From Candidatus Roizmanbacteria bacterium (GTDB lineage: Bacteria; Patescibacteriota; Microgenomatia; UBA1406; HO2-37-13b), in NCBI GenBank assembly GCA_038127095.1, contig JAYPGZ010000005.1, positions 1 to 59,878 of the forward strand: 59,878 bases of DNA, read 5' to 3'. The stretch's first letter is position 1. Each line of letters begins with the position of its first letter. The translations under genes were made by a program, and so were the position numbers. Below the pieces are notes generated by a model. That model saw nothing but the letters and a program-made list of their open reading frames with translations. It was not told where the DNA came from and ran no database searches. Of this stretch, positions 30,199 to 48,294 are shown piece after piece.

Positions 30199-30203
30199 AA
30201 CAA

Positions 30204-30227
30204 AAAAGCTCTCTTGCGAGAGCTTTT
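30204..30227. terminator. Intrinsic-terminator-like hairpin AAAAGCTCTC-ttgc-GAGAGCTTTT (bidirectional A/T tracts)
   Basis: Perfect 10-bp stem 6 nt after the stop at 30198. Confidence 0.7.
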
Positions 30228-30307
30228 AGGTGAGTTCGAAAACTCCCTGAACGCCTGATAATCTACTTAATATTAACAACTATAGACATAATTGTCAAGT
30301 GTTAGAT

Positions 30308-30394
30308 TGGCGGAGGGTGAGGGAGTTGAACCCTAACCCTTTCGGGTCGAAACGATTATCAGACGTTCTCTGAGACCGCTCAGATTCACCCTCC
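30308..30394 (-). tRNA. Non-canonical tRNASec-like tRNA (8/4 acceptor/T stems, long variable arm), anticodon GAU, CCA encoded; candidate allo-tRNA
   Basis: Hand fold of GGAGGGTG-AA-TCTGAG-CGGT-CTCAGA-G-AACGT-CTGATAA-TCGTT-TC-GACCC-GAAA-GGGTT-AGGG-TTCAACT-CCCT-CACCCTCC-G-CCA. Confidence 0.7.
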
Positions 30395-30444
30395 AACCGC
30401 AGGCATAATATCAGGCAATTATTAAATTCTTATTAAATTTGATG

Positions 30445-30479
30445 GAGATTCTTCAATCGCTTCGCTCCTTGAGAATGAC
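30445..30479 (-). repeat. REP-like element
   Basis: gagattcttcaatcgcttcgctccttgagaatgac. Confidence 0.7.
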
Positions 30480-30577: not shown

Positions 30578-31096
30578 ATGCCTAATAAAGCTAAAATCGA
30601 TTTTGTATCCTCGTTATATTCCACACTGAACGATTCTAAGAATTTTGTTGTTATTGGATTTGCCGCAACATCGCATAAAGACTTGGAAGAACTTCGCAAA
30701 GATCTTCGGGCTGCAGGTAGCAGCATGACCGTAGTAAAAAATTCACTCTTTAAAGTCACCGCACAAAAGCTCAAGCACACCGAACTACTTGAAGCGCTTG
30801 ATTTAAAAGGTTCTTCAGCCGTCATTACGCTTCCATTAGATTGGACGGCGGCTTTAAGCGCATTCTACAAATTCGCAAAAGCGCATGATACTGTTGGTTT
30901 CAAAGCGGGAATTATTGAAAGCAAAACATATGGAAAAGATGATTTGATGAAATTGGCACAACTTCCAAGCAAGGAAGAATTGGTTGTTAAGATCATTCTT
31001 TCACTGCGAAGCTCACATACCAGCTTGGTACGAAGCCTTAACTTTAACACACAAAAATTAATACAAGTTATTCAAGCAGCAGCAAACAAAAGCTAA
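30578..31096 (+). CDS. rplJ: 50S ribosomal protein L10
   Basis: 172 aa. KIDFVSSLYSTLNDSKNFVVIGFAATSHKDLEELRKDLRAAGSSMTVVKNSL. Followed by rplL. Confidence 0.85.
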   Translation: MPNKAKIDFVSSLYSTLNDSKNFVVIGFAATSHKDLEELRKDLRAAGSSMTVVKNSLFKVTAQKLKHTELLEALDLKGSSAVITLPLDWTAALSAFYKFAKAHDTVGFKAGIIESKTYGKDDLMKLAQLPSKEELVVKIILSLRSSHTSLVRSLNFNTQKLIQVIQAAANKS

Positions 31097-31131
31097 TACG
31101 ATTAGCATTTACACGAAAGGTGGTGACATGT

Positions 31132-31515
31132 ATGGCAGAAAAAAATATTGAAAAAATTGCAGAAGATATAAAAGGATTAAACGCGTTGGAACTTTCAGAA
31201 CTTGCCAAACACCTTGAGGATGTGTTCGGTGTAACCGCCGCTCCTATGATGATGGCAGGAGCAGCCGCTCCAGCAGCAGCCGGAGAAGCAGCTGAAGAAA
31301 AAACAAATTTTGACGTTGTTCTAACCGATGGAGGCGCTAATAAACTAGGAGCTATTAAAGCAGTTCGCGAACTTAAACCTGATTTAGGGCTTATGGATGC
31401 GAAGAAACTAGTAGAAACAGCACCACAAACCATTTTGACTCAAGCTAAGAAAGAAGAAGCTGAAGCAGCAAAAGCTAAGCTGGAAGAAGCAGGAGCTAAA
31501 GTGGAACTTAAGTAA
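31132..31515 (+). CDS. rplL: 50S ribosomal protein L7/L12
   Basis: MAEKNIEKIAEDIKGLNALELSELAKHLEDVFGV, an Ala-rich hinge, then GANKLGAIKAVRELKPDLGLMDAKKLVE...KAKLEEAGAKVELK. Confidence 0.9.
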   Translation: MAEKNIEKIAEDIKGLNALELSELAKHLEDVFGVTAAPMMMAGAAAPAAAGEAAEEKTNFDVVLTDGGANKLGAIKAVRELKPDLGLMDAKKLVETAPQTILTQAKKEEAEAAKAKLEEAGAKVELK

Positions 31516-45845: not shown

Positions 45846-47930
45846 TCAGTTGAGACCGGGGCAGGCAGGGTAGTTTGCCTTTTCGCCATCGGTGATGACG
45901 AGATGATCTCCATGACCATCATATCCATACAGCCAACACGGGTTGTTTCTGTCGCCTGCATCCCAGTCGAAAGTGCCATTCCTGGCCTCATCGACTTTGC
46001 AGGTCTTGCAGACAACCAGCTGGTCGCTGTTAAAGGATCCGTCCTGCCAGGTCGGCTGGGCGGGTGGTGGCGGTGGTGCTTCCACAACGGGGTCGCCGTT
46101 AGGCACGACCTCGTATTGGGGCTCCGGAGTGGGCGGTACTGCGGTGGCAACTACGATCAGTTGCCTCGGGGTGGCCTTCGGAACAAACCGACGGTTAATC
46201 GTTCCCTTGGGAACGAAGCGACGGTTGATCTGGCCGCTGCTGAGCGGGACTGGAAGTCCTCCGCAACTGGTCGGCCTTGGGAAACCCAAAGCGTCCATAA
46301 CCCAACCGGGCATGCCACGCGTTCTAAACCATCCTTCGCAGAACAGTCGGTTAGCCTCGCTTACGCGATTCTCGTTCCAGACTGTTAAGCCGAATGTACC
46401 ACCGATACGGGTGAGGAAGCCCCACAGATCGCCTCCGAGTGAGACAAACTGATGCGGGTCTCCAATGAAACCTTCTACCAGACAGTTTCCCATATGGAAT
46501 GGGTTTGCCGGCAAAAAGCCTTCCTTGTAGTGCCAGGCGTGAGTATGATCAAGCTGCATGACCTTTTCCCATCGGGAAGCAGAACCACCAAAGGTGATTT
46601 CGGCGTCGCGCTGAGTTTGGGGCCAATTTGCCAAACATACCGTAGGCACGTTTGTCGGTTCCGGCGTTTCCGTCGGAATGAGTGTCGGTTCGTCGGTCGG
46701 GACGCTGGTGGGCGTCTTGGTCGGCGTACGACTTGGACGAGGTGTCCAGGTCGGTTCCGGCGTTGGCGTACAAGTCGGTTCCGGCGTCGGTGATGGACAC
46801 TCAATGATCCTGCACCAGATCGGCGGTTTTGTCGTAGCCGTCGGACTCGGAGTCGGCGTGCACAAGCCTGGGAATGCCTCGCACGGGTCGCCAATTGGCG
46901 GTTTCGGTGTAGTCGTCGGTGTTTCCGGACACTCGCCATTCGGTCCCGGGTAGGGACAGCTTGGCTTGTCCGTTGCCTTCGGCGTGTTCGTCGGTGGATT
47001 CACAGGCGTGTTCGTCGGCGTCAAGGTTGACGTCGAGGTCGTGGTGGCCGAAGCTGTGGCTGTCGTCGGGCTGCTAGTGACCGTCGGGCTAGGCGTAACT
47101 GTCGGGCTTGGCGTCCACGTAGGCGTGTTGGTCGGTGTAGCCGTAGGCGCGGTTGGGCTTGGCCCAGTCGTGCTTGTGGCTGTCGTTGTCGGCGTCCGGG
47201 TGGGCGTCGAGGTCGTGGTGGCCGAAGCCGTGGCTGTCTGCGTGTTCGTTGGTTGCGTCGTCGCAGTCGGCGGATTTGTGGCCGTCCTCGTCGTGGTCGC
47301 GTTGGGCGTGACCGTTGCCGGGGGGCATTCAACCCAAAGTACTTGGTAGACCTTAGTCCCGTCCGAGCAATACGCCAAGTGACCTACCAGCCAACACTCA
47401 GTCTCTGGCGGAGGCGCCTGGACACCGTACTGTGTGCAATGTGCCACACAGTTCGTGCCATTCACCTTAACCGTAAAGGTTGCTGGGTTGGTCCTCGTGA
47501 CCTGGTTGTCGTCATTCGTTTGTCGAACAACTTCAACCTGCTTCGCGCCAGGCAACCTTCCGCCCGAAAGCTCGATGAGCTTTTGGAGCGAATTCGCCAA
47601 GGCGGTCTGGGTGATGGCACTTGCTGCCATGAACTCACCCATCTGACGATCGAACTCTTGAAGCTTTTGGAGCTCCTCGTTCGTTTCGACTTGGGCCTCC
47701 GTCAGCGGGGCGACCATATCGCTGAATTCCTTGCGGATTTCAGTAAGGTCGTTAGGTGAGACCAGCTCGGTCTCGGGGTTAGGTGCGCTTGTCGGCGTTG
47801 CCGTGGGTGCCTCTGCAGCAAGCGTTAGCCCAGGCTGGGACATGTACGCGTTGATGCGGTCAAGCGTGTTACAGCTGGTGGTGCTGAGTGCCACGAGGCA
47901 CAACAGCATCGACAGGATTCGGCTTTTCAT
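45846..47930 (-). CDS. High-GC island 1: putative lipoprotein (694 aa) with very long Thr/Pro linkers and Cys-rich segments
   Basis: ATG 47930 preceded by AGGAG. MKSRILSMLLCLVALSTTSC is lipobox-like. Long TPTxTP tracts and the tandem GQINRRFVPKGTINRRFVPKAT. The track start 48065 reads the upstream gene's poly-Thr tail in another frame. Confidence 0.65.
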   Translation of the reverse strand: MKSRILSMLLCLVALSTTSCNTLDRINAYMSQPGLTLAAEAPTATPTSAPNPETELVSPNDLTEIRKEFSDMVAPLTEAQVETNEELQKLQEFDRQMGEFMAASAITQTALANSLQKLIELSGGRLPGAKQVEVVRQTNDDNQVTRTNPATFTVKVNGTNCVAHCTQYGVQAPPPETECWLVGHLAYCSDGTKVYQVLWVECPPATVTPNATTTRTATNPPTATTQPTNTQTATASATTTSTPTRTPTTTATSTTGPSPTAPTATPTNTPTWTPSPTVTPSPTVTSSPTTATASATTTSTSTLTPTNTPVNPPTNTPKATDKPSCPYPGPNGECPETPTTTPKPPIGDPCEAFPGLCTPTPSPTATTKPPIWCRIIECPSPTPEPTCTPTPEPTWTPRPSRTPTKTPTSVPTDEPTLIPTETPEPTNVPTVCLANWPQTQRDAEITFGGSASRWEKVMQLDHTHAWHYKEGFLPANPFHMGNCLVEGFIGDPHQFVSLGGDLWGFLTRIGGTFGLTVWNENRVSEANRLFCEGWFRTRGMPGWVMDALGFPRPTSCGGLPVPLSSGQINRRFVPKGTINRRFVPKATPRQLIVVATAVPPTPEPQYEVVPNGDPVVEAPPPPPAQPTWQDGSFNSDQLVVCKTCKVDEARNGTFDWDAGDRNNPCWLYGYDGHGDHLVITDGEKANYPACPGLN

Positions 47931-47952
47931 GATCGGCACTCCTAGTAACTCG

Positions 47953-48294
47953 TCAGGGCGTGGTTGTCGTGGTCGTCGTGGTCGGTGCGGTCGGCGTGGT
48001 TGTCGTGGTCGGTGCGGTCGGCGAGGTCGGAACCGGGGTCGGCGTTGCCGATGGTTCGAACCCATCGATGATCTTGTCGACGATCATTTTGATCACCTTG
48101 TAGGCAACCAAACTGACCAGGATGAAGACGACCTCGATGACGGCCCAGGCGAGCAGCATAGCCCACCAGTAGTCCTGCAGGCCGAACATCTTGACGGAGA
48201 CGATCACTCCGACAGTTCCGAGGATCACTCCGCCGAACACAGCGGGGATCAAGATCGCCAGCATGAACACGTGTGCGATGGTCTTCTTGGACAT
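47953..48294 (-). CDS. High-GC island 1: small polytopic membrane protein with a poly-Thr/Pro tail
   Basis: AGGAGG lies 6 nt before the ATG at 48294. Two to three TM segments, with a tail ending TTTTTPTAPTTTTTTTTP. Confidence 0.6.
   Translation of the reverse strand: MSKKTIAHVFMLAILIPAVFGGVILGTVGVIVSVKMFGLQDYWWAMLLAWAVIEVVFILVSLVAYKVIKMIVDKIIDGFEPSATPTPVPTSPTAPTTTTTPTAPTTTTTTTTP

Follow-up and report, generated by a model that had tools for sequence, protein, structure and literature searches.

We report here a pair of small RNAs encoded in a 59,878-nucleotide (nt) stretch of DNA from a Candidatus Roizmanbacteria bacterium (assembly GCA_038127095.1, contig JAYPGZ010000005.1), the whole of which is referred to as the window. 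Its minus strand bears an 87-nt gene (30308..30394) for a transfer RNA of the 8/4 type with the isoleucine-codon anticodon GAU, followed by a predicted RNA of about 62 nt (30202..30263) whose 5' end is complementary to the anticodon arm of that tRNA. Sequence comparison established the fold of the tRNA, the promoter and terminator of its partner, a co-varying helix between the two RNAs and the restriction of such partners, among the matches listed, to 8/4 tRNAs with non-serine anticodons. We propose, with modest confidence, that the tRNA is an allo-tRNA that would insert serine for isoleucine, is potentially toxic for that reason, and is kept masked by a cognate antisense RNA, the two forming a single module. 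A sequence-only reading of the same DNA had recognized an 8/4 allo-tRNA(GAU) with serine identity, and this part stands; it had taken the tRNA for a free-standing gene, having missed the antisense partner.

Allo-tRNAs are functional in Escherichia coli and are used as tools for genetic-code expansion. Their native role, and the tolerance of cells for misreading of sense codons, has to our knowledge been a long-standing question since 2017. An antisense RNA that covers the anticodon, found only with non-serine anticodons, would provide a concrete and testable answer, namely masking of the tRNA. Should the hidden tRNA be toxic, the module would follow a toxin-antitoxin logic in which both partners are RNA and the poison is deliberate mistranslation. 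Natural orthogonal tRNA/anti-tRNA pairs could serve as switches for engineered mistranslation or code expansion, and they offer a cheap experimental handle on what allo-tRNAs do.

Fold and identity elements of the 8/4 tRNA

Read from 30394 to 30308, the 5' part of the gene is GGAGGGTG AA TCTGAG CGGT CTCAGA G AACGT CTGATAA TCGTT TC and the 3' part is GACCC GAAA GGGTT AGGG TTCAACT CCCT CACCCTCC G CCA. The acceptor branch consists of an 8-bp acceptor stem, the linker AA and a 4-bp T stem, giving 12 bp in all; the D arm has a 6-bp stem and a CGGU tetraloop, the anticodon arm a 5-bp stem plus a 31:39 mismatch and the loop CUGAUAA, and the variable arm 5 bp and a GAAA loop, with G73 as the discriminator and an encoded CCA. 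This sequence and layout, with the GAU anticodon at 30360-30358, are as the sequence-only reading described them. The U-U closing pair that it placed in the anticodon arm is present as a 31:39 mismatch in the window and does not hold as a pair, the two positions being unpaired in four of the six variants described below.

Standard searches passed over the gene. ARAGORN found three other 'tRNAs' in the window and none at 30308-30394, and a scan of the window with Rfam at gathering thresholds listed only the tRNA-Thr. In a permissive scan of a 200-nt region the Rfam tRNA-Sec model (RF01852) aligned from end to end with 45.5 bits (local E 2e-8), against a gathering score of 47, and set CUGAUAA in the register of the anticodon loop. 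The checks suggested by the sequence-only reading were thus divided, ARAGORN giving no match and the covariance model returning the anticodon register that it had proposed. Folded alone, the sequence has a stable minimum free energy (MFE) structure (z -3.7) that is not the cloverleaf, and the case for the fold therefore rests on comparison with relatives.

The region upstream of rplJ was compared in about 30 assemblies, located by their L10 protein and cluster members. The version found in the window is identical in two further independent assemblies (L004 and L005) and partial in a third (L028). Five other versions with a GAU tRNA were found in the clade with at least 95% L10 identity: L001; L006-L010; L021, L022, L023 and L025; L026; and L029. 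Six GAU modules (window, L001, L006, L021, L026 and L029) were aligned as A3, in which L026 was given NN for a missing 2-nt linker.

Over these six variants from the Candidate Phyla Radiation (CPR), 96.2% of the cells of the 8/4 cloverleaf are paired and 16 pairs have changed on both sides. None of 500 shuffles reached the observed pairing, and slid controls gave 31-55%. The pairs changed on both sides are distributed over the D stem (5 of 6), the anticodon stem (4), the T stem (2 of 4) and the acceptor stem (3 of 8), and all eight acceptor pairs and all four T pairs are kept in the six variants. The outer anticodon-stem pair (columns 27-45) is likewise kept, as G:U in four variants and A-U in two, and the variable arm has 93% of its cells paired with two compensated pairs. 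The D loop is CGGU, UGGU or CGAU. Constant in all six are G1-C72, G2-C71, A3-U70, G73, the variable arm and the nucleotides G34 to A38; CCA is encoded in five. The anticodon G34 A35 U36 (30358..30360, minus strand), together with A37 and A38, occupies the invariant columns 35-39 of A3; the adjoining columns 33 and 34 (positions 32 and 33) are variable.

A rival 7/5 fold was rejected. Acceptor pair 8 is kept in all six variants, as G-C in five and A-U in one, whereas the fifth T-stem pair that the 7/5 fold requires in its place forms in one of six. The tRNA-Sec-like 8/4 shape assigned by the sequence-only reading thus came through both its 7/5 check and the alignment of homologs, where stems are preserved by compensatory changes; the same alignment also brought out lesions in the tRNAs of L001 and L021, which are described with the partner. 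A 25-nt inverted repeat (I1, 72%) involving the 3' end of the tRNA was found as well and has no support from covariation.

Mean identity across the variants is 77.5% for the tRNA against 88.0% for the adjacent rplJ DNA; a tRNA that diverges faster than the adjoining coding DNA is unlike a housekeeping tRNA. The serine identity set (per PMC9976931) is present, comprising the long variable arm and G73, already pointed out in the sequence-only reading, together with G1-C72 and G2-C71. Isoleucine determinants of the anticodon loop are all present too, with G and not A as the discriminator. Instead of the 7/5 branch, short variable loop and A73 of a canonical tRNA-Ile(GAU), the molecule has an 8/4 branch, a long variable arm and G73. 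Nor is it selC, as the sequence-only reading had concluded: its anticodon is not UCA, its acceptor branch has 12 and not 13 bp, its Rfam score is below gathering, and no SelA, SelB or SelD domain was found among the window open reading frames (ORFs) scanned with Pfam. It has the structure by which Mukai et al. 2017 (Nucleic Acids Res 45:2776; PMC5389517) defined allo-tRNAs, so that its description as a candidate allo-tRNA was apt. These allo-tRNAs have G73 or U73 and mostly non-serine anticodons, and some of them were shown to be serylated and active in translation. Their anticodon stem exceeds that of canonical tRNAs in length; in the six variants the extra outer pair is kept and the innermost pair, 31:39, is open in four. 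Judged from these comparisons, we take it to be a genuine, selectively maintained 8/4 tRNA and a new member of the (8/4) allo-tRNAs, extending them to the CPR.

A putative promoter of the tRNA lies at 30405..30413 (minus strand), where an extended -10 element, TGaTATTAT, ends 10 nt upstream of position 1; its -35 element is weak, and a scan with the consensus promoter found no match at 30405..30413. The block AAATTTAATAAGAATTTAAKAATTG..TGATAKTATGC is almost invariant among variants with differing tRNAs. Between this promoter and that of rplJ lies a variable block (30396-30470 in the window, and at the same place in L002, L021, L029 and L030). It contains a short hairpin-like unit, GTCATTCT...AGAATC, of which the window, L002 and L030 have a single copy and L029 about three; the unit is absent from L001 and L006, and L021 has other sequence in its place.

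The partner small RNA and its helix with the tRNA

The partner, a small RNA (sRNA) predicted from its promoter, its terminator and MFE folds, starts 45 nt downstream of the tRNA. The promoter scan found a sigma-70-type promoter at 30270..30298 (minus strand), with TTGACA (30298-30293) beginning 9 nt after the CCA, a 17-nt spacer and TAATAT (30275-30270), which amounts to 10 of 12 consensus matches with a TG upstream of the -10 box. Its hexamers are conserved in all variants and the spacers vary. The RNA begins with a seed, GAUUAUCAGGCGUUC (30263-30249), followed by a hairpin with a T-arm-like UUCG/UUGAA loop and then CACC (30248-30228), and ends with an intrinsic terminator found by the terminator scan (30227-30204) and a U tract reaching 30202. 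MFE folds of the six sRNAs agree in leaving the seed unpaired, ahead of the hairpin and the terminator; as modelled, this is the classic layout of a trans-acting sRNA. No family of Rfam 15 matched the partner.

The seed is the complement of tRNA nucleotides 27-41, GAACGUCUGAUAAUC (30354..30368, minus strand), a segment that takes in the anticodon loop from end to end, together with the 5' strand of its stem and 2 nt of the opposite strand. This complementarity, detected as inverted repeat I2 (15 nt, 93%), gives 14 Watson-Crick pairs and one G:U in the window. Over the six variants the intermolecular helix (columns 27-41 with 157-171) reaches 98.9% pairing, with changes on both sides at 8 of its 15 pairs; none of 500 shuffles reached this and slid controls gave 27-42%. 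Loop positions 32 (C, U or G) and 33 (U, or C in L021) have no partner within the tRNA, yet they co-vary with the sRNA. A pair between positions 31 and 39 forms in two of six variants, and in all six each of them pairs with the sRNA. The G:U pairs in the helix indicate complementarity at the level of RNA rather than DNA.

No terminator was found between the tRNA and its partner in the window by the terminator scan, so that read-through transcripts are likely.

Other readings of the downstream segment were tried and rejected. A small ORF finds no ATG, and no frame is conserved between the window and L006 when compared by eye. A T-box-like element would call for a conserved UGGN and a regulated ORF downstream, neither of which is there. 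An invertible DNA switch does not agree with the G:U pairs in the helix, the lack of an adjoining recombinase and the single orientation in all assemblies. Pairing of the partner hairpin with the D arm or the acceptor, as given by RNAduplex for the window, shows no co-variation in the CPR set; for the D arm it is unsupported because D arms change while the hairpin remains constant.

The partner hairpin is T-arm-like in other variants too (e.g. GGGUUGAAUCCC in L006), and the partner as a whole resembles the 3' half of a tRNA. A motif YC[A/G]CC stands between hairpin and terminator in partners of the Actinomycetota type (e.g. L060, L147 and L194) and at 30232-30228 in the window. It tracks tRNA position 7, with 10 cases of (U,A), 7 of (C,G), 5 of (U,G) and none of (C,A), as if the motif paired with G5-G8 of the 5' acceptor strand. 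In the CPR variants CACC shows no co-variation.

Close relatives show the locus to be hypervariable and dispensable. Relatives with 64-84% L10 identity (L011-L020) have other content in the slot and no module there, and no variant in inverted orientation was found among about 20 assemblies. The L021 tRNA, present in four assemblies, has C33, has lost G19 and has a CGAU D loop, with stems and partner maintained, which suggests selection on the RNA pair, and not on decoding, in some lineages. In L001 (2643-2857, minus strand) the T arm is separated from the 3' acceptor strand by an inserted GC-rich palindrome of 20 nt, CCTGCCTGCCGGCAGGCAGG, and the tRNA has an A5:C mismatch and CCC for CCA; its partner seed is a perfect 15-nt complement. 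L001 is a single contig of a metagenome-assembled genome (MAG), and an assembly artefact is possible. Upstream of rplJ in L030 (about 1270-1400 of that locus) lies a deletion remnant of an L006-type module, in which the 5' part of the tRNA runs, across a TTGA microhomology, directly into the partner hairpin and part of the terminator is missing, so that both halves were lost together. The tRNA is thus possibly disabled in L001 and L021 beside an intact partner; an intact tRNA with a broken partner was seen in none of the relatives compared.

The slot can hold other genes. L002 (2641-2824, minus strand), a sister lineage with 97% L10 identity, and L024 have a different, irregular 70-nt tRNA with anticodon GUC, found by ARAGORN. 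It has a 7/5 branch, a 4-bp D stem, a UGGU tetraloop, no 8-9 linker, G3:U70 and A73, which by sequence are alanine identity elements on an aspartate anticodon. The RNA downstream of it in L002 is complementary over about 30 nt of this tRNA, from the D arm to the anticodon loop. In L026 an additional gene of 92 aa with a weak PhdYeFM antitoxin match lies between the module and rplJ (1014-1292, plus strand), and no toxin gene was seen beside this Phd/YefM-like gene.

Partners of 8/4 tRNAs in other genomes and the setting of the locus

GTDB species genomes, Joint Genome Institute (JGI) metagenomes and IMG/VR viral contigs were scanned with a loose pattern, GGAG...GGT...U33...GTTCRANTC...CTCCG, in which the spacing from the 5' end to the anticodon loop was fixed and the length of the variable arm and the anticodon were free; for the metagenomes a stricter form (GGAGGG...CCCTCCG) was used. 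Each of the three scans gave at least 120 matches, and all census counts given in this text are counts among the matches listed. After removal of duplicates, tRNAs with at least 7 of 8 acceptor pairs and at least 5 of 6 D-stem pairs were classed as 8/4-like, and a partner was defined as a run of at least 12 nt complementary to the anticodon arm within 300 nt downstream on the same strand.

A partner was present with 40 of the 50 8/4-like tRNAs that have non-serine anticodons (GAC, GCG, GUC, GAG, GAU, GCC, GUG, CAC, UUC and others). It was present with none of the 26 that have serine anticodons, nearly all on viral contigs, with none of 4 tRNA-Sec and with 4 of 228 other tRNAs. Fisher's test gave p 4e-36 overall and 1.7e-12 against the serine-anticodon 8/4 class alone, and the other three combinations of flank and strand were like the controls. 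In partner-positive loci the seed covers approximately positions 26-41 and most often begins 54-62 nt downstream of G73. In 36 of the 40 the helix is preceded at a distance of 4-8 nt by the end of a TANNNT box, compared with 1.5% of random positions, and a terminator follows in most of the partner-positive loci examined. Hosts include Acidobacteriota, Solirubrobacterales and other Actinomycetota, and unclassified MAGs. Further GAU members were found in genomes (L038, L053 and L135) and in metagenomes (L162 and L235). In L038 the partner lies upstream of the tRNA and has its own terminator before it, which makes the two separate transcription units. Earlier patterns had failed because they were too tied to the D arm of the clade studied here: a family-specific DNA pattern run on genome contigs matched only the genome of L001, and a fixed-geometry pattern had no match in the JGI metagenomes.

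Two further observations were made in the census. L103, L167 and L219, of the Acidobacteriota type, have near-identical allo-tRNA bodies that differ at anticodon position 35, giving GCG, GUG and GAG, so that the anticodon appears to have been swapped on a constant scaffold. Their seeds follow the anticodon: GCG is matched by CGC and GAG by CUC, and at the GUG locus the seed is again CGC, leaving one G:U. Downstream of the allo-tRNA(GAC) of L064 and L069 there are two successive seed-bearing sRNAs, each with a hairpin and a terminator, and the second has a different seed (...GATTATCAGGCC... in L064) that could match another tRNA.

In the window the tRNA gene lies about 180 nt upstream of rplJ-rplL (30578-31515, plus strand), in divergent orientation, and beyond the terminator of the partner comes a gene in convergent orientation. 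The ORFs adjoining the module showed no recombinase gene. A Pfam scan of window ORFs found cohesin, dockerin, RHS, TatC, Pth, Def, Map and VirD4-like ATPase domains, a content that resembles a CPR genome. Among named organisms the closest L10 is that of Candidatus Roizmanbacteria, with 64% identity, and the 90% cluster has one member labelled 'Microgenomates group bacterium'. AUU and AUC make up 4.9% of the 8,539 codons of window genes.

The two ordinary tRNAs of the window, Leu (14621-14705) and Thr (55770-55841/2), have no encoded CCA, in agreement with the sequence-only reading. The tRNA-Leu(CAG), on the minus strand, has a canonical look and an ARAGORN match and lies directly upstream of pth (14729-15196); it was not among the Rfam gathering-threshold matches of the whole window, probably owing to speed filters. 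The allo-tRNA(GAU) of L038 likewise lies directly upstream of a pth-like gene. A third ARAGORN match, a 95-nt 'tRNA-Arg(GCG)' (47980-48074, plus strand), falls inside a repeat-rich stretch, GTGGTCGTCG... The region 46001-48000 has a G+C content of 59.6%, compared with about 42% elsewhere, and lies within an ORF of 739 aa without a Pfam match (45846-48065, minus strand). This GC-rich and repeat-rich match inside a long ORF was not taken as a tRNA and is probably false. A gene for an RHS-repeat protein of 2074 aa (3081-9305, plus strand) is followed by one for a protein with an AvrPphF-ORF-2 domain (9271-10716, plus strand), and the pair (3081-10716) looks like a polymorphic-toxin-type locus in a CPR genome.

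Proposed mechanism, alternatives and relation to known systems

From these data we infer that both RNAs are transcribed, that the tRNA is serylated, decodes and is toxic, and that its partner masks it in vivo. The seed would invade at the loop, which is open over 9 nt owing to the usual mismatch at 31:39, displace the 3' strand of the anticodon stem and bury the anticodon, leaving a tRNA unable to decode; the duplex may then be cleaved. A drop in the level of the partner, through transcriptional shut-off, stress or infection, would release the stable tRNA. If serylated, it would insert serine at AUU and AUC, with proteome-wide mistranslation and growth arrest as the expected outcome. The module would thus act as a toxin-antitoxin-like pair of RNAs or as a switch for conditional mistranslation. 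The decay pattern, with tRNA lesions beside an intact partner and joint loss in L030, fits a toxin and its antidote.

Known properties of such tRNAs are consistent with this proposal. Identity of tRNA-Ser is independent of the anticodon (PMC9976931), and allo-tRNAs of S. bohemicum inserted serine at leucine codons in E. coli, their induction leading to growth arrest and death (PMC5389517). Many anticodon variants of tRNA-Ser are lethal in yeast (PMC6125640). Mukai et al. 2017 (PMC5389517) reported allo-tRNA hosts among Clostridia, Proteobacteria and Acidobacteria, toxin-antitoxin genes nearby and possible regulatory roles; neither 'antisense' nor 'complementary' occurs in their text. Full-text literature searches turned up no account of antisense RNAs that accompany allo-tRNAs, nor of any natural toxin that is a tRNA and has an RNA as its antidote.

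As a broader and more tentative view, which we think rather less probable, missense allo-tRNAs in general could be the toxins in a widespread toxin-antitoxin or abortive-infection system composed only of RNA, with a seed-first sRNA resembling a tRNA 3' half as the antidote. Such an antidote would consist of the re-pairing strand of the anticodon stem extended over the loop, the T-arm-like hairpin and CACC, and it would re-pair the 5' half of the tRNA, putting the anticodon out of reach. Each pair would then be a private and rapidly diversifying lock and key. The window locus would represent a serine-for-isoleucine version, and L002 an alanine-for-aspartate version in the same slot.

Several points weigh against the masked-toxin proposal. 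The six CPR variants are related by descent, so that the shuffle controls overstate their independence and give counts rather than probabilities. Cofold energies favour cognate pairs moderately, at -6 to -20 kcal/mol (-1.8 for L026), and are noisy. With the isoleucyl-tRNA synthetase (IleRS) determinants of the anticodon loop complete, the tRNA might carry isoleucine, perhaps by partial charging, and be harmless. C33 and the lost G19 of L021 are hard to square with efficient decoding, and with stems and partner maintained they hint at selection for a function outside translation. The census used a pattern of fixed geometry, and its counts have the scope given above. Ten of the 50 non-serine 8/4 tRNAs have no partner in the 300 nt downstream, including both UAU members (L202 and L228) and L152, L161 and L181 (CAA, UAA or UCG); one of the ten is L038, with its partner upstream.

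One alternative within translation is the free-standing gene of the sequence-only reading, in which an expressed and serylated tRNA mistranslates AUC and AUU as serine, constitutively or conditionally, with no dedicated regulator. The structure and the serine identity elements of the tRNA agree with it, as does the activity of allo-tRNAs in E. coli (PMC5389517). We nevertheless find it improbable, as it leaves the co-varying partner out of account and offers no reason for partners with 40 of 50 non-serine and 0 of 26 serine 8/4 tRNAs; moreover, constitutive serine at 4.9% of codons should be strongly deleterious in a small genome. A co-varying partner points to a tRNA that is masked or conditional, and away from plain constitutive mistranslation. 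If instead the molecule were an additional, structurally odd tRNA-Ile charged by IleRS through its anticodon loop, with the partner tuning its level, the invariant G34 A35 U36 A37 A38 would be accounted for, the anticodon and N6-threonylcarbamoyladenosine (t6A) at position 37 being strong isoleucine determinants. The discriminator, itself a strong isoleucine determinant, is however G73 throughout, and the molecule matches serine identity in its long variable arm and in the GG/CC end of its acceptor stem (PMC9976931). A housekeeping tRNA is not expected to diverge faster than coding DNA, nor to be replaced in its slot by a tRNA with an aspartate anticodon or by a deletion, as in sister lineages. 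These points make a tRNA-Ile very doubtful. A decaying tRNA-Sec or tRNA-Ser pseudogene, a chance tRNA-like fold or an inverted repeat serving as a DNA recombination site would agree with the missing ARAGORN match, the Rfam score below gathering and the variable locus. Such origins are hardly credible in view of compensatory changes in every stem and in a partner helix that contains G:U pairs, and, for a recombination site, in view of adjoining ORFs without a recombinase and some 20 assemblies without an inverted variant.

Two alternatives keep the pair and change what it does. The partner could act in cis, as part of a tRNA read-through transcript that folds back on the anticodon arm and controls precursor processing or stability, with no trans RNA; the lack of a terminator between the halves in the window, and the single terminator common to both, speak for this arrangement. 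It has little probability in our view, given a consensus promoter just before the seed in the CPR variants, a TANNNT box in 36 of 40 loci elsewhere, and the upstream partner of L038 with its own terminator before the tRNA. A non-translational pair is unlikely, though less so than the other alternatives: a tRNA-shaped RNA would act off the ribosome in a regulatory or conflict module, either as a decoy or substrate for IleRS, the t6A enzyme or an anticodon nuclease, with the sRNA gating access, or as a sponge. In its favour, L021 dispenses with U33 and G19 while GAUAA never varies, L001 retains a perfect partner despite its 20-nt insertion, and allo-tRNA(UAU) was found inactive in translation by Mukai et al. 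(PMC5389517), who suggested regulatory roles. Against it, partners are missing exactly at serine anticodons, which is sensible only if decoding matters; seeds co-vary with the allo-tRNA instead of being constant, with no other conserved target apparent; and G73, GGAG/CUCC, the variable arm and CCA are conserved.

The closest known relatives of the tRNA are the (8/4) allo-tRNAs of Mukai et al., with which it shares the 12-bp 8/4 branch, the 6-bp D stem with a tetraloop, the long variable arm, G73, a non-serine anticodon, a near miss of the tRNA-Sec model and a loose association with toxin-antitoxin genes. It differs from them in its origin in CPR/Microgenomates, its encoded CCA, its usually mismatched 31:39 and its antisense partner. 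Bacterial tRNA-Sec (RF01852), which is serylated by seryl-tRNA synthetase (SerRS), has the same 8-bp acceptor stem, 6-bp D stem with a 4-nt loop, long variable arm and G73. Unlike the 8/4 tRNA(GAU), it has a 13-bp 8/5 branch and the anticodon UCA reading UGA, depends on SelA, SelB and SelD, and has no antisense partner in the four tRNA-Sec genes of the census. The (8/4) tRNA-Ser of phages and rumen Clostridia (Mukai et al. 2017) share the architecture and the serine identity, but they have serine anticodons and no downstream antisense partner in 26 cases.

The partner resembles a T-box riboswitch in being an RNA that base-pairs with a tRNA anticodon. A T-box, however, pairs 3 nt, binds NCCA through a UGGN bulge and controls a downstream gene, whereas the partner pairs 15 nt including a stem strand. 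As a whole, the module is akin to the toxin-antitoxin systems with an RNA antitoxin (type I hok/sok, type III ToxIN, type VIII CreT/CreA and SdsR/RyeA): a strongly promoted small RNA lies beside a putative toxin gene in a compact, accessory and fast-evolving locus, and in type VIII the toxin is itself an RNA. In type I the toxin gene gives a peptide mRNA, in type III a protein RNase, and CreTA has a tRNA-sequestering mini-ORF RNA repressed by Cascade; the window module is none of these. Known here from sequence, it would differ in that the putative toxin is a missense tRNA neutralised by pairing to its anticodon arm, and it is possibly a new class of RNA-RNA toxin-antitoxin system.

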